From Candidatus Dojkabacteria bacterium (GTDB taxonomy: Bacteria > Patescibacteriota > Dojkabacteria > JAHIVN01), in contig JAFGDO010000001.1 of NCBI GenBank assembly GCA_016932045.1, positions 1,014 to 65,013 of the forward strand: a stretch of DNA of 64,000 bases. The letters are read 5' to 3'. The notes below the pieces were generated by a model. It did no database searches and was not told the DNA's origin. It saw only the letters and a program-made list of their open reading frames with translations. Positions 1,843 to 7,104 of this stretch are shown piece by piece (position 1 is the stretch's first letter; each line of letters begins with the position of its first letter). The position numbers and the translations under genes were made by a program.

Positions 1843-3651
1843 TTACCAAGGAGTCTCACCCTTTACAGCAGTCACATAGTTCATACCTTTATAAATACCA
1901 GCAAGCTTTCCTACCGGGACAAAAATACCCCAGTATAGACTTGCCTGTCCAACTGTTGTTGTAGGATTCGCATAAGTTGTCTTTGGACAGTTCAATTCGG
2001 CTTCAACATCAGAACCTGTCAGGGCCACCCCACTTCCATAAGCAGTACTTGGGGCTAAAGCATAATGCTGCTGACCGACTACTATACTATCACCGGTACA
2101 TGAAGGTGTGCTTACATTATCACAGTCCATATCATCGCCTTTCAAGTTTGTATCTAGAACCACATTTCCTGTTCCTGAAACTACTACTGTATCTGCACAT
2201 GTTGCATCCCCTGTACCTTCCGAGTAAGAACCATAGTTAAGAGTACCAACGTCAAGATCAAGAGCTGTTAGACTATTCACTTCAGTTGGAGTAACCGACT
2301 CAGTATTGCCTTGTGCAGTGTCATCGTCTGTTGCCTGCATAGTTGCATACCATTCATCATCTGTCCATGTTGTTCCTGTATCAGTAGGATCTGCATGATA
2401 GTAAATCGTATTTACAACTGTGCACTTATATCCTGCAGTTGCATCTGTATTCTCTCTGTCTGTCTTTGTGCCTGTACAAGTCTCAACTCCTGAATCATAC
2501 ACACATGAAAGAAGAGGATAACAGCTGTCTCGATCTTCTTCACCCGCAGCATCGCACGAATCAAATGTACCCCCAGCCGTTGATTTATATAAACTAACCT
2601 TCACATTGCCCCCAGTGTTCACATCCTGACAGTTATTGCTGTCAGTAATTATTGCATCTATATATACAGTTTCTGTACTATTTGTAGAACTCTCATCAAG
2701 ATCTAGACTTCCGCCAGTAACTGTAATAGTTACAGTATTCACAGTCGGAGCTACATTGTTTACTGTAAATGTAGCTGATCTTGTTGCCGGAGTAGATTCT
2801 AGATTATGACCGTCATACATATATGGATATACATCATAACTAGCATCCTGTATAACCGCTGGCACAGGATAATTACATTCTAATGTTCCCGGTGATGTAA
2901 CACCAGTTGATGAACATAGAGTCGTTCCTGTACAACCTCCTGAAGTAGCACCTGCGGTTTTACAAACGTATAGACTTACAGTATCAGCTGTACCACCAGC
3001 ATCGTCATACTCTGTATACGTTGCCGTAAATGTTGCTGTTCCTCCTGGATTTGCAGAAGGTGAAGTTAGACCATCAAATGTTGGTTTATGGTTTACATAG
3101 AATGGTGACTCTGTACCATCTGAAGCAGTACCCTGACTGGCTGCTGAACATGACCCGCCGACAATTGCATCACATGCAAATGCATACCATGCCTCAGTTT
3201 CACTATTTCCCGACTGTTGTCCGCCACCGTCTGTTTGCTGAATTGCAGAAGTCGTGCAACTATTAGATGCAGCGCTTGCAGCCGAAGTATCATCTCTGCA
3301 CCATCTATTTCCTGAACCGCCATTACATTCCGGAGCACTAGTTCCATTGTGTGTTGGTGCATTACCGTTCTTACAAATAATCAGAAACCAGTTATCACCA
3401 TTATCATCGGAAGCCGTACCCTGGAAAGTAACTGTAGCTCCTACATTAGTCGGAGCTGCAGCAGTTGAGGCTACAGTCTCTCCCATAGCAGAAAAATTTG
3501 GAGCTTCATTTGATACACTTACCTGAGTTTCTTTTGGCTCAGCGGCTTGTGTATTTACTCTAAGTTTTGTGATTGCCAAAAACATCAAAACAATCCCCAA
3601 AGCTCCTATAGCAAGAATCTTTAGGGCTTTTAATTTGTCTTTGATTAACAT
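1843..3651 (-). CDS. Large Thr/Gly/Ser/Cys-rich secreted surface protein with an N-terminal signal anchor.
   Basis: N-terminal TM or signal (LKILAIGALGIVLMFLAI). More than 35 Cys and long Thr/Gly/Asp-rich tracts typical of extracellular adhesin or S-layer-associated proteins. No recognisable enzymatic motif. Confidence 0.55.
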   Translation of the reverse strand: MLIKDKLKALKILAIGALGIVLMFLAITKLRVNTQAAEPKETQVSVSNEAPNFSAMGETVASTAAAPTNVGATVTFQGTASDDNGDNWFLIICKNGNAPTHNGTSAPECNGGSGNRWCRDDTSAASAASNSCTTSAIQQTDGGGQQSGNSETEAWYAFACDAIVGGSCSAASQGTASDGTESPFYVNHKPTFDGLTSPSANPGGTATFTATYTEYDDAGGTADTVSLYVCKTAGATSGGCTGTTLCSSTGVTSPGTLECNYPVPAVIQDASYDVYPYMYDGHNLESTPATRSATFTVNNVAPTVNTVTITVTGGSLDLDESSTNSTETVYIDAIITDSNNCQDVNTGGNVKVSLYKSTAGGTFDSCDAAGEEDRDSCYPLLSCVYDSGVETCTGTKTDRENTDATAGYKCTVVNTIYYHADPTDTGTTWTDDEWYATMQATDDDTAQGNTESVTPTEVNSLTALDLDVGTLNYGSYSEGTGDATCADTVVVSGTGNVVLDTNLKGDDMDCDNVSTPSCTGDSIVVGQQHYALAPSTAYGSGVALTGSDVEAELNCPKTTYANPTTTVGQASLYWGIFVPVGKLAGIYKGMNYVTAVKGETPW

Positions 3652-4126
3652 AAAAAGGAGTTTTAATAAGTAAAATATTGGATAAATTTGTTGTTTAGCG
3701 TAAATTAAATTATTATATACATCATCATCCTAGGTAATAAGAATAGTTTTGTCAAGTGTCATCTGTTGCTTGAATGAAATGATTTAACTAGGTATAATTC
3801 TTCTGCTCAAAACAATTGCCAATAAAGAATTGAAGGTGTAGAATAAATAGTTTAGATCCTTATAGAATTCAGAGTCTAATCTTTCGCCAAGCGGGATAAC
3901 GGTTTGGAAGTTGTTTAAAAAGTAAAAATATTTGTTGCCCTGTAAAAACTCGCTACACTCGGTTCACAGGGCACAAGTCAAACTCGACATTTCATATCAC
4001 TTCGCTCATGAAATGTAAGTTTGCTATGTAGCCCCATCGTCTAATCCTTCGATAAACTCAGGATTGACGAATTAAAAATAGTATAGTTCTTTACAAAATG
4101 AAATAACTCGCCTTGAATGCATTGAA

Positions 4127-4250
4127 GGGCCCCATCGCCCGCCTGCCCTCACGAACTTGTTCGGGAGCGGGCAGGTCTAACGGTTAGCCTGCCTGCCGGC
4201 AGGCAGGGACACCGGGTTTTTCCCGCAAATGTCCATGAGCCGAAAGCGAA
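4127..4250 (+). pseudogene. Decayed partial copy of tRNA-Glu (D-arm to variable-loop region), interrupted by a 20-nt perfect palindrome.
   Basis: GTCTAACGGTTAG (4175-4187) and GGACACCGGGTTTTTCCCGCAAAT match the D-arm/anticodon-arm/variable-loop segment of the intact tRNA-Glu at 4282-4353. They are split by CCTGCCTGCCGGCAGGCAGG (4188-4207). No T-arm or acceptor 3' strand follows. Confidence 0.4.
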
Positions 4251-4281
4251 TGGGAACAGTTGCGAGGATCCCGCAGATCCT

Positions 4282-4353
4282 GGCGCTATCGTCTAACGGT
4301 TAGGACACCGGGTTTTCAACCCGGCAATCCGGGTTCGATTCCCGGTAGCGTCA
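4282..4353 (+). tRNA. tRNA-Glu (anticodon UUC); CCA not encoded.
   Basis: Manual cloverleaf: acceptor GGCGCTA/TAGCGTC (7 bp, one G-U), D-arm GTC-TAACGGTTAG-GAC, anticodon stem CCGGG/CCCGG with loop TTTTCAA (34-36 = TTC), variable CAAT, T-arm CCGGG-TTCGATT-CCCGG, discriminator A. Confidence 0.8.
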
Positions 4354-4564
4354 CGTAAAATCTCGTATAATCCCTGTGGGATTTCGACGGGATCACGTGA
4401 CCCGTCACAGTAAAATCAGCACCTGATGTGAGATGATTTTACATGAGGAAGTGATGAGCAAAGCGAATTTTACGTCCTCACATGGCTCTAGGTGTCATCC
4501 TGATAAACTTCTTAATAAAACAAATAAACCCCAGAAGACATAGTTAAAATATTATTATTTTCTT

Positions 4565-4822
4565 ATGTATTACTATGTCTACGTACTGCAAAGCTTAAAA
4601 AATGAATATTTCTATATTGGATTCACAACTAATCTCAAGAAGAGAGTTAGTGATCATAACAATGGCAGGAATACCTCAACAAAAAATAGGAAACCTTTAA
4701 AACTTATCTATTTTGAAGGCTATTTGAATAAGAAAGATGCTCTGGGTAGAGAAAAGTTTCTAAAATCAGGTAGTGGAATGAGGTATTTGAAGAAACAGAT
4801 GAGACATTACTTTATGTTATAG
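4565..4822 (+). CDS. Small GIY-YIG nuclease-family protein (UPF0213/YhbQ-like).
   Basis: YVYVL...YIGFTTNLKKRVSDHNNG is a classic GIY-(10-11)-YIG plus conserved Arg/His/Asn core, in an 85-aa protein. It lies between two copies of a 15-nt tRNA 3'-end repeat. Confidence 0.75.
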   Translation: MYYYVYVLQSLKNEYFYIGFTTNLKKRVSDHNNGRNTSTKNRKPLKLIYFEGYLNKKDALGREKFLKSGSGMRYLKKQMRHYFML

Positions 4823-5019
4823 ATTTAACATTCTGGTTCGATCTGCGAAGCAAGGTTCGTCTGCCCTGAGCACAGTCGAAGGGACTCCCGGTAGCGTCAC
4901 CAAAAGTTCCTTGACTTCCACACTGATTTTACAAGAATATAGCTGTATCCTTTATACCCTTTGACTTCTATATAATTGGTTGATAGTATGATCTAATAAG
5001 CTTATGATTCACTACCTAC

Positions 5020-7104
5020 ATGAGAAAACTTCTTTCACAAATTTTTCCCTCGGTTTTTATTTTCTCTTTATTTTTAATAATTCCTTTGTTTTTCCCTCAA
5101 AACACTAAAGCGTATGATCAACTCGGAGAAGGGGTCTGTGAGTGCAATTCCTGCAGCGACTGCACATCAGCTCTTGAAGATGATACTAATTGTACGACTA
5201 CAGTAAGACTTACTGTAGATATTCTTGATGAACAAGCAAGATGCATTGATCACCCTGCTGGTAATGACAAAACCTTCGACTGCCAAAACCATACTATAGA
5301 TGGAACCGATAATGATATAGGTATTGGAATCAGCGGGACTTCTGGAGGCAATAATATTACGATTCAAAACTGTTTTGTAAATGATTTTCAAGAAGGTATT
5401 GTAGTTTACGATGGCTCCACATATGTCATAACTTCTAATACTGTATCTTCCTGTTTATTTGGTATCGGCGCCTATCGAAATAGTAATGTAACTATCTCGG
5501 GAAATACTGCAAATCTGAATGATTATTTTGGAATACATACCATTGAAAATACTTTAGCATCAATTACCGGAAATACTGTCACCAATACTACTGCTGAACT
5601 AGGTCCGGCATCTTATTATATCAGTCAATATTCCAATGGATCTTGGAAAGGGATTGCAGTTGAACACTTCACAACTCAATATAAGACCAAATCATTCCTT
5701 GCTCATGAAGATTCAAACGAGTTGAAACTCAGATTTGTTCAGAAAAATATAGATTTCGGCGATATAGAAAGCATACAGCTTTATGCCTGCGGGACATTTA
5801 TCAGTCCAAAATATGCACGATATTTAGATACTGGCGAATCTGTTCTTGAAGATATACTCTATAATGATTTAAATGTAGTTGTAGCTCATGAAAAAGAAGT
5901 CGAAATCGCTTGGGATATTCCACTGATGTGTTCATACCCGTACATTGTTTCTCTTAATGCAAATGAATATGGGCAAGGACTGCCAATTCAATCCCCGCAT
6001 TCTCGAGATTCAGAGTTTTACACCTATGAGATAGACTCAAGTCAACACTCAATCAACACGGATGGCGTATTGAATGAAAATGATAAACTGAATATACCTC
6101 AATTTATATCTATGTGGGAACCGACTTCAGGTCATCCGAAAGGAAATACCTTTGTTTATATCAGTAATGATAATAAAAATGTATATATATCTTTTGACAT
6201 AACTTCTGACAATACAAATGAGTATGGGCAGGACTGGATAGAAATTGAGACTTCAGATACAAAAGTGTTTAGAATTGACGACTTCAATGATAAGTACGGG
6301 AAATGCGGCTTCGGAACAACTGATAAAGTTGCTTTTAAACATCAAATGTGCGAATTTGCAATTCCAAAAGAAGAATTTCATAACTCCGATATATCATTTA
6401 AGGTTAGATATTATGGTACTGGATCAGCTGGTGGAGCAGGAACTGGGATAATCGTTGAAAGCGATAATGCAACTATAAATAATAATGTTGTTACTGATAA
6501 TGCCACCTATGGTATTTTTATAGATAACTCACTCGGGAACACGATAACTTTGAATACAAACACGGTATGTAATAACTATGATACTGATATCATAGGCACG
6601 AATATGGATCCAACCATAACAGGAGATAATAATAAATGCGATACGACTTTTGACTGGAATGATGCGGGAACAACAGGTTGTACTTTTGGATGTGATGATA
6701 CTCCACCGGTTTTTGTTCAACTTCCGGGAAGCACTGAACTGATCAATATAACTGAAGGACAAGTTATAACTGTAAATCCATATACCATAAAAGTAAAACC
6801 TGAGGATGATGAAAGCGGGATCAATAAAGTCGAGATATATATCGATGATGTTTTAATTTGCACTATAACAACACCGGATGCAAATGGGGTATACTCATGC
6901 AATTGGGACACCTCAAAGTATCATTCAACTGTACGTGCCGTAGCTTATAATAACAATAATCTTACAGCACAGATTACAAGGACAGCAAATGTCGCACTTT
7001 CGGAAACAGGACAAAATATTCTCCTAGGCTTAGTATTCGGTTTACTATTAGTTATCGGGACAATCTTAACGAATAGGATAATCCACCAGAAGAAATTACT
7101 ATAA
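5020..7104 (+). CDS. Secreted parallel beta-helix repeat surface protein with C-terminal TM anchor.
   Basis: N-terminal signal peptide. Repeated G-x-G-I-x-x-x-S/N-I-T-I-x-N-C motifs (GIGISGTSGGNNITIQNCFVN...; NATINNNVVTDNATYGIFIDNSLGNTITLNTNTV) typical of NosD/pectin-lyase-fold repeats. C-terminal TM ILLGLVFGLLLVIGTILT. Confidence 0.6.
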   Translation: MRKLLSQIFPSVFIFSLFLIIPLFFPQNTKAYDQLGEGVCECNSCSDCTSALEDDTNCTTTVRLTVDILDEQARCIDHPAGNDKTFDCQNHTIDGTDNDIGIGISGTSGGNNITIQNCFVNDFQEGIVVYDGSTYVITSNTVSSCLFGIGAYRNSNVTISGNTANLNDYFGIHTIENTLASITGNTVTNTTAELGPASYYISQYSNGSWKGIAVEHFTTQYKTKSFLAHEDSNELKLRFVQKNIDFGDIESIQLYACGTFISPKYARYLDTGESVLEDILYNDLNVVVAHEKEVEIAWDIPLMCSYPYIVSLNANEYGQGLPIQSPHSRDSEFYTYEIDSSQHSINTDGVLNENDKLNIPQFISMWEPTSGHPKGNTFVYISNDNKNVYISFDITSDNTNEYGQDWIEIETSDTKVFRIDDFNDKYGKCGFGTTDKVAFKHQMCEFAIPKEEFHNSDISFKVRYYGTGSAGGAGTGIIVESDNATINNNVVTDNATYGIFIDNSLGNTITLNTNTVCNNYDTDIIGTNMDPTITGDNNKCDTTFDWNDAGTTGCTFGCDDTPPVFVQLPGSTELINITEGQVITVNPYTIKVKPEDDESGINKVEIYIDDVLICTITTPDANGVYSCNWDTSKYHSTVRAVAYNNNNLTAQITRTANVALSETGQNILLGLVFGLLLVIGTILTNRIIHQKKLL

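Follow-up and report, generated by a model that had tools for sequence, protein, structure and literature searches.

The closest described counterparts of the element treated here appear to be the Ssn/NTS systems, in which hairpins direct nucleases to single-stranded DNA; the likeness is one of size and layout and not of family assignment. The Ssn family was set out by Chenal et al. (Nat Commun 2025, PMC11893778) around SsnA of Neisseria meningitidis, CDD cd10448 and the NTS/SRM hairpin repeats. According to the same study, Ssn proteins bind oriented hairpin repeats flanking their genes and cut single-stranded DNA a few nucleotides (nt) upstream, similarity to N. meningitidis SsnA was taken at tblastn E < 1e-10, and the repeat-gene-repeat layout is noted as insertion-sequence-like; there is no mention of transfer RNA (tRNA), transfer-messenger RNA (tmRNA) or Patescibacteria. 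The present element, a hairpin leader followed by the gene of a small GIY-YIG nuclease, lies directly behind a tRNA-Glu gene in a stretch of 64,000 nt from a Candidatus Dojkabacteria contig (JAFGDO010000001.1), low in GC (about 36%) and cellular, which is called the window below. Features of the window lie on the + strand, except where no strand is assigned.

Positions 4354-4822 of the window probably, if by no means certainly, represent one copy of a selfish cassette that targets the 3′ termini of tRNA and tmRNA genes, mainly in Patescibacteria (candidate phyla radiation, CPR). The cassette consists of a covarying DNA-hairpin leader and the gene for a bare GIY-YIG domain, and contains neither an integrase nor an intron. 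Relatives of both leader and nuclease are found at many tRNA and tmRNA 3′ ends, thus the whole looks like a tRNA-end-targeting selfish cassette, and it looks to be a little-described one. Its mobility is supported by distribution, by the precision of the junctions and by occasional target duplication. The initial annotation, made from the letters of the window alone, had proposed an inserted element at this tRNA-Glu, and homologous cassettes at 18 tRNA isotypes and tmRNA, with similar duplications at loci L065 and L020, agree with it. The view that the GIY-YIG segment came in as a cassette and does not belong to the ancestral tRNA locus is supported; the observation made in that annotation is confirmed and its interpretation partly supported.

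Comparison with described systems

The cassette resembles the Ssn/NTS systems in kind, with a repeat that differs and a target that is precise. Shared with them are a single-domain GIY-YIG protein of about 85-95 amino acids (aa; 85 aa in the window) and a gene flanked by oriented hairpin repeats with a conserved 5′ flank starting CGT, and a cut just upstream of the hairpin would here fall at the tRNA/leader junction. In contrast, the flanking hairpin repeats seen here covary but are unlike SRM, and whereas the Ssn repeats are dispersed in hundreds of copies, the leader repeats are confined in the 64 kb of the window to the tRNA-Glu locus. Plasmid-borne homologues, sought as a link to Ssn, amounted to four weak matches of UPF0213/YazA type.

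Islands and prophages placed at tRNA or tmRNA 3′ ends by tyrosine integrases likewise bring a replacement 3′ end that keeps the tRNA intact and leave a displaced copy on the far side; the cassette differs from them in having no tyrosine or serine recombinase, in its size of ~0.5 kb and in that the duplicate is mostly absent. With SegB and I-TevI it has in common the GIY-YIG core and the position of a selfish gene beside or inside conserved RNA genes, but in these enzymes a DNA-binding domain stands at the C-terminus and the substrate is double-stranded DNA, and the cassette is without an intron. IS200/IS605 and REP/RAYT elements depend on an HUH tyrosine transposase (Y1, TnpA) that forms a covalent intermediate. 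Strand-specific end hairpins, insertion 3′ of a short fixed sequence and hairpin-only copies are features of these elements that appear to recur here, with hairpins defined at the left end of the cassette. IS200/IS605 insertions usually lack a target duplication, and 60 of the 65 linked loci considered here lack a clear duplicate, with three loci having one; a possible counterpart of the IS200/IS605 subterminal hairpin is a cassette hairpin that starts at the junction and includes the last bases of the tRNA. The difference is that the sole cassette protein is a hydrolytic GIY-YIG domain and no HUH transposase.

The UPF0213/YhbQ/YazA and Slx1 proteins provide the nearest solved relatives of the nuclease, and a UPF0213-like open reading frame (ORF) precedes a tRNA-Met 3′ fragment in locus L073. 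Slx1 is a structure-specific nuclease that needs Slx4, and no link of this group to tRNA gene ends was found in the literature searched. Searches on GIY-YIG together with tRNA, tmRNA, Patescibacteria, COG2827, YhbQ or UPF0213, in a literature coverage that is incomplete, returned no description of the association with tRNA ends. Four candidate identities for the locus each fail in a defining feature: an att site made by an integrase, an IS200/IS605 element, a group I intron and a homing enzyme of the classical kind.

The working tRNA-Glu and its displaced 3′ end

An intact tRNA-Glu(UUC) lies at 4282-4353 (ARAGORN, end 4353/4; Rfam RF00005, 67.2 bits), with the acceptor GGCGCTA/TAGCGTC and the discriminator A4353 followed by C and G, and hence no encoded CCA. 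The exact 15-nt repeat TCCCGGTAGCGTCAC (direct-repeat family D2) has one copy at 4340-4354, at the end of this gene, and another at 4886-4900 that runs on with CA to read ...GTCACCA; the chance expectation of a 15-nt exact repeat within 1.5 kb is, by our estimate, ~1e-3. Both the gene and the repeat had been described in the initial annotation and stand as described there.

The downstream copy belongs to something longer than the 15-mer. A displaced T-stem/T-loop piece of the tRNA-Glu 3′ part, ATTCTGGTTCGAT (4830-4842, repeat D14), is 85% identical to 4327-4339 and begins 8 nt past the stop codon of the GIY-YIG gene. It is followed by a 43-nt insertion inside the displaced T loop (4843-4885, no strand assigned), which is without a stable fold and holds a GCCCTGAGCACAGTCGAAGGGAC piece that is kin to a motif of other loci, and then by the displaced tRNA-Glu 3′ end TCCCGGTAGCGTCACCA (4886-4902, repeat D2), in which 15 nt identical to 4340-4354 are followed by CA. 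Together ATTCTGGTTCGAT, the insertion and TCCCGGTAGCGTCACCA make up a complete T arm plus acceptor 3′ strand, and the local-alignment score of the displaced 3′ end is 31, where controls reach 23 at most. For the downstream 15-mer the best reading is that it was the original 3′ end of the tRNA-Glu, since displaced.

Three closest relatives of the locus, L082-L084, were taken from other collections; their nucleases match that of the window at 76-84% aa, they lie at tRNA-Glu(UUC) or (CUC), and their neighbouring genes differ from those of the window. L083 and L084 have more decayed duplicates, broken by GC-rich insertions, and their displaced copies are without CCA, while in L020 the CCA is on the new copy and not on the displaced one. 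A CCA-bearing original end, as proposed in the initial annotation, thus does not generalise to the family. The working tRNA-Glu has the pairs G4-C69 and T6-A67 where the dead copy upstream and all close relatives have C4-G69 and C6-G67, either through two compensatory changes or as a foreign allele, and the displaced 3′ copy carries the same new acceptor allele as the working gene.

The leader and its junction with the tRNA

The cassette leader (4354-4564) is composed of rearranged hairpin units and is delimited by a junction and units homologous in L082-L084, by covariation and by folds. Unit 1, CGTAAAATC...GATCACGTGAC, spans 4354-4401, and its stem also takes in the last five bases of the tRNA, GTCAC; unit 2, recognised by its fold, is GTAAAATCA...TGATTTTAC plus AGGAAGT...ACGTCCT at 4410-4480; and CCCCAGAAGA stands directly ahead of the GIY-YIG start codon. 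The leader joins the tRNA-Glu right behind the discriminator base, and the junction GTCAC/GTAAAATC is the same in the window and in L082-L084. Across the family the junction reads CCA/CGTAAAA(A/T) in nearly all tRNA-linked loci and is followed in order by an arm, a loop, the complementary arm and TTTTTACGTG, and then by a second part made up of the hairpin GCCNCGTG...TTTACGNGGC, a repeat of the 3′ arm and TCACGTGGCAC(N)GCC. The CGTAAAA motif stands behind 47 of 52 cassette-linked tRNA or tmRNA genes compared with 2 of 30 other tRNAs in the same loci, therefore it is cassette-specific and not a general terminator; both matches at non-linked tRNAs are leader-only copies.

An alignment of 22 leaders was examined for covariation against 500 shuffles and slid controls. 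Pairing reaches 96.7% in the two leader hairpins, where 93 cells have changes on both sides; for an alternative long-range structure, which joins the 5′ arm to the second 3′ arm, the figures are 95.2% and 99. None of the 500 shuffles matches the values of either pairing, and the slid controls are ~40% paired. G-U pairs are rare in the leader hairpins, and Verrucomicrobia have hairpins of the second type in either orientation, upstream of the gene as well as downstream, thus DNA hairpins fit better than an RNA of the 5′ untranslated region. With a covariance model the leader is located immediately behind the tRNA or tmRNA in most of the loci, and a leader-only copy is located in L029. Leader units are often reiterated partially in tandem. 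No Rfam family matched the leader in the window or in eight other loci, and inspection of the leader alignment gave no complementarity of a leader arm to the adjacent tRNA.

Two further observations come from locus L029. At 2498-3065 its GIY-YIG ORF extends into the tRNA-Ser gene that comes next, and behind this gene stands a leader unit without an ORF; at 964 it reads TGTCATTCTCGCGCAGGCGGGAATCCAG, which is nearly the Neisseria NTS consensus.

The GIY-YIG gene and its product

The gene at 4565-4822 encodes a single-domain GIY-YIG nuclease of 85 aa (Pfam PF01541, 2e-16), whose sequence is identical to that of an NCBI protein from Candidatus Dojkabacteria. It is the only credible ORF, and the only one with a family match, between the 15-nt repeats, which bears out the earlier statements that this gene is alone there and that no integrase accompanies it. 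PF01541 spans residues 2-69, other domains are absent, and the chain stops at residue 85, right after the catalytic domain; Pfam and NCBIfam give the 85-aa protein nothing beyond the generic GIY-YIG domain. Residues Y6, Y17, R27, H31 and E63, which we take to correspond to the catalytic residues of I-TevI, are invariant in 29 homologues. The AlphaFold2 model (pLDDT 95) has one compact domain. The solved structures that come closest to it are those of UPF0213 BH0048 and of the nuclease domain of Slx1, with 1zg2 (6e-6) and 1ywl nearest by sequence and a fold match to Slx1 at TM 0.65-0.71; I-TevI is a much weaker match. No sigma-70-like promoter was recognised on the + strand between tRNA-Glu and the ORF, therefore the gene is probably transcribed by read-through from the tRNA-Glu.

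Distribution and targets of homologous loci

Homologues of the 85-aa protein were searched for with one genome per species, and 80 loci were kept. In 52 of these ARAGORN places a tRNA or tmRNA on the same strand, ending 71-381 nt upstream of the nuclease gene. Rfam RF00023 (92-136 bits) adds ten CPR tmRNA genes missed by ARAGORN (L007, L009, L016, L021, L024, L028, L031, L056, L059 and L067), one further locus has a partly masked tRNA-Ser upstream, and the CPR loci L010 and L063 have a leader match without a called tRNA. In about 64 of the 80 loci the nuclease gene is thereby preceded, on its own strand, by a tRNA or tmRNA gene; those without one are 15 from Verrucomicrobia and one from Omnitrophota. 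The targets comprise 18 tRNA isotypes, among them Ile, Met, Arg, Ser, Glu, Val, Asp, Ala, Tyr, Phe, Asn, Leu, Trp, His and Lys, as well as tmRNA, which is the commonest single target (about 19 loci). Some clades of a neighbour-joining tree of the nucleases mix isotypes (Met/Arg/Leu; Asp/Met/Val/Ser), which indicates that the target has changed over time.

The Verrucomicrobia homologues lie away from tRNA genes. Their flanks, mostly the downstream ones, hold hairpins of the form CCGCGTGAGGCGAAGCCTTTTACGCGG, which may point either way and sometimes follow one another in series, a layout that is REP- or NTS-like; it is seen in L019, L023, L033, L038, L040, L041, L045, L052, L057, L060, L062, L076, L077 and L080.

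Target duplication and empty sites

Duplication of the tRNA end was scored by local alignment in 65 tRNA- or tmRNA-linked loci. A clear 3′-end duplicate right after the ORF is present in three of them, namely the window, L065 (17 nt) and L020 (19 nt), with alignment scores of 31-38 compared with the control maximum of 23. In these three the repeats enclose the leader and ORF only, about 450-550 bp, and the right boundary of the cassette falls within ~2-30 nt of the ORF stop codon. The duplicate of L065 is followed by a terminator-like hairpin and a T run, and the empty site can therefore be reconstructed there; loci that keep a duplicate in this way offer virtual empty sites.

Metagenome contigs were also scanned with TCCCGGTAGCGTCAC, a pattern too short for an empty-site scan: the 120 loci returned are mostly chance 15-mers, with a few tRNA-Glu genes of other organisms, and the flank of the window is in none of them. 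A synteny search through the 694-aa gene downstream gave two relatives at 51-54% identity, of which L205 has other neighbours and no tRNA.

Origin of the cassette

Direct repeats of a tRNA 3′ end that bracket foreign DNA are what a classical tRNA-integrated island would leave, and tRNA and tmRNA genes are classic targets of integrases. The initial annotation accordingly saw attL and attR, and by this account an integrase element in the tRNA-Glu 3′ end would have been deleted to 531 bp with the GIY-YIG gene as cargo. This is very improbable. No integrase or fragment of one lies between the repeats in the window, L065 or L020, and the right boundary keeps near the stop codon (about 2-30 nt); leader and ORF recur at >60 tRNA or tmRNA ends with an identical base-precise left junction, which independent deletions could not produce. 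A clear duplicate is moreover found in only three of the 65 linked loci, most cassettes abutting the tRNA end without one, thus integration of the att type is not the indicated mechanism. The same annotation also offered a homing-endonuclease cassette. In strict form this would be an enzyme encoded in a self-splicing intron of the tRNA-Glu T loop, or a free-standing Seg-like one, that cuts cassette-free double-stranded alleles; the GIY-YIG catalytic domain, the adjoining highly conserved target gene and a duplication that begins in the T loop, as expected from one-sided copying and end joining of a break, are consistent with it, and the GIY-YIG enzyme SegB of phage T4 is described as acting in a tRNA gene cluster (PMC2330249). 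Strict homing is nonetheless improbable, since a search of 3700-5200 with E values of up to 10 allowed matched no group I or other intron, a complete tRNA stands ahead of the cassette, and homing within one isotype can't explain a base-precise junction shared by 18 isotypes. Every characterised homing enzyme of the GIY-YIG kind known to us has a separate DNA-binding domain, joined through a linker, whereas the 85-aa protein is a bare catalytic domain for which I-TevI is a weak structural match; the locus thus probably contains no homing-endonuclease cassette in the classical sense.

A conserved host module is a further reading, which we consider unlikely. The nuclease would then be co-transcribed with the tRNA or tmRNA and have a cellular role, e.g. 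the control over recombination or incoming DNA that has been proposed for SsnA of Neisseria, with the leader as a regulatory or binding site and the tRNA fragments as decayed tandem duplications. Such a module agrees with an arrangement that is near-universal in CPR-type loci and mostly without duplication, with an intact and well conserved protein, with several clades of a single isotype and with the lack of a recognisable promoter of its own; Ssn proteins, for their part, are thought to be domesticated in Neisseria (PMC11893778). A single function does not, however, predict 18 isotypes and tmRNA upstream or clades of mixed isotype, nor does a host module predict leader-only copies and tandem or partial leader reiterations, tRNA-end duplicates that exactly flank the cassette in three lineages, or two different GIY-YIG genes around one tRNA.

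Several points weigh against a mobile, tRNA-end-targeting cassette as well. UPF0213 and Slx1 are what the protein most resembles in both sequence and fold. The SRM pattern (HGTCWYN(0-2)YYVSBRHN(0-5)WNVSBRGN(0-2)RNCYNB) has 4 matches in 397 kb of the loci compared with 2.6 in shuffles and none in the leaders, and the cassette is at most a putative member of the Ssn family. Several nuclease clades are pure for one isotype, which a long vertical association fits too. The 60 loci without duplication imply that a duplicate is either not an obligatory product of insertion or decays fast, and neither the metagenome scan nor the synteny search found an empty site for the locus of the window itself. 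The working acceptor GGCGCTA/TAGCGTC, set against GGCCCCA in the pseudo-copies and relatives, is left unexplained by a simple model. GIY-YIG enzymes hydrolyse DNA and, to our knowledge, do not join strands, therefore any transposition chemistry must be that of the host.

How a tRNA-end-targeting cassette would move we infer by analogy with Ssn/NTS. The small nuclease would recognise hairpins in single-stranded DNA and nick beside them, and breaks at or near the end of a tRNA gene could be repaired by copying a tRNA allele that bears the cassette, or by ligation. Such repair would mostly give a clean junction and occasionally a 15-28-nt duplication of the tRNA end, with the cassette coming to sit after the CCA or, as in the window, after the discriminator base. 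The insertion in the window would have duplicated the T arm and acceptor 3′ strand of the tRNA-Glu, the left copy remaining in the working tRNA and the right copy (4830-4902) turning into junk that later gained the 43-nt insertion. The dead tRNA-Glu copies upstream may be leftovers of earlier invasions or replacements at the same locus, and some of them could derive from a 5′-type GIY-YIG element, which duplicates the 5′ end of a tRNA.

More tentatively, single-domain GIY-YIG nucleases with their own hairpin leaders may possibly form a previously undescribed class of minimal mobile elements, which would read folded single-stranded tRNA and tmRNA genes and insert base-precisely, with a 3′ and a 5′ type that both regenerate an intact tRNA and leave dead fragments. 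Such elements would be nuclease-only and hairpin-guided, unlike integrases, HUH transposases and classical homing endonucleases. If mobile, the cassettes would be among the smallest autonomous elements known (about 0.45 kb), and the role of the single-domain GIY-YIG proteins, a very large set that is for the most part uncharacterised, would be the spread of an element and not host defence or repair; the hairpin-directed cutting of single-stranded DNA by one branch of this set, Ssn, is itself a recent finding. The base-precise tRNA/leader junctions offer a concrete candidate substrate for each enzyme, and the paired specificities of nuclease and hairpin could be of practical interest as tools for single-stranded DNA. 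The finding would also account for many tRNA pseudo-fragments in CPR genomes and for small proteins mis-annotated as "excinuclease ABC subunit C" beside tRNA and tmRNA genes.

Dead tRNA-Glu copies upstream of the locus

Upstream of the working gene the initial annotation had described a degenerate partial copy of the tRNA, split by a palindrome. The exact pieces and the palindrome are present: tRNA positions 10-22 recur exactly as GTCTAACGGTTAG (4175-4187) and positions 22-35 as GGACACCGGGTTTT (4207-4220), and the perfect 20-nt palindrome CCTGCCTGCCGGCAGGCAGG (4188-4207, inverted repeat I3, no strand assigned) lies between the D arm and the anticodon arm. The copy is not partial, however, but a full-length pseudo-tRNA-Glu (4128-4258) that aligns along the whole tRNA-Glu, and it is broken a second time by a 38-nt GC-rich hairpin insertion in the D stem (4138-4175, no strand assigned), visible as an alignment gap and folding as DNA at -11.7 kcal/mol (z -3.7). 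Its acceptor, GGCCCCA...TGGGAACA, is the allele of the closest relatives, and decay has affected its anticodon loop and T arm. The pseudo-tRNA goes uncalled by ARAGORN in intron mode, and also once both insertions are removed; ARAGORN in intron mode and a permissive Rfam search give the intact tRNA only, which argues against an intron-containing, split or permuted tRNA as the nature of this fragment.

Further upstream lies what is taken as the oldest remnant, a tRNA-Glu D arm reading GTCTAA[..]TAACGGTTTGGA at about 3874-3910 (direct repeats D11 and D15), which aligns with regions upstream of tRNA-Glu in L084 and L082 and is followed by a spacer with a hairpin (3936-3973). A tRNA-Glu 5′ fragment, GCCCCATCGTCTAA, corresponding to tRNA positions 2-15 and broken in the D loop, is found at 4029-4066 by repeat D10 (4029-4044) and by alignments, and is followed by the small hairpin TCCTTCGATAAACTCAGGA. 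Between 3890 and 4045 the window can be aligned with what precedes tRNA-Glu in L082 and L084; this part of the remnant structure is common to these relatives and therefore older than the genome of the window.

Short GC-rich insertions that share CCTGCC[CT]GCC break dead tRNA copies in several CPR genomes. They are found in the window (4138-4175 and 4188-4207), in L084 at 1435 and 1462, in L083 at 567, in L064 at 881 and in L056 at 688. The insertion of L064 has the same position in tRNA-Glu as that at 4138 of the window, between CCATC(G) and (G)TCTAAC, and the insertions of L084 and L064 have CCTGCCYGCCGAAGCTYC...AGCGTAGG in common. Palindromic footprints of end repair were considered as their origin and rejected, the palindrome having no half that derives from the tRNA itself.

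Mirror-image elements at tRNA 5′ ends

The layout at 4029-4066 matches that of intact 5′-type elements in L005 and L020, in which a GIY-YIG ORF comes next, and this part of the window looks like a 5′-type element minus its ORF. At L005:3561-3950 a 5′ fragment of tRNA-His (positions 1-25) is followed by a small hairpin, a GIY-YIG ORF, 9 nt and the intact tRNA-His. L020:781-1157 has the same layout at tRNA-Asn, and a 3′-type cassette lies on the other side of that tRNA. In the 5′ type the tRNA fragment is about 17-25 nt long, and the intact tRNA begins within ~10 nt of the stop codon or overlaps it.

Additional GIY-YIG genes and pieces were seen beside other tRNA sequences. Downstream of its first cassette, L073 has a second GIY-YIG ORF (2890-3148) of UPF0213 type, ending ...KSWSRKKKEALISRD, after which a 12-nt copy of the tRNA-Met 3′ end follows at once. 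The small piece CYGAGTTTATCGAAGG, mostly within a hairpin, is found repeatedly in Dojkabacteria relatives and once more in a Verrucomicrobia genome, with a tRNA fragment or a GIY-YIG gene beside it; it has sites in the window at 4048-4066 (reverse complement) and 4861-4883, in L082 at ~846-866, in L084 at ~784-804 and downstream of the gene in L040.

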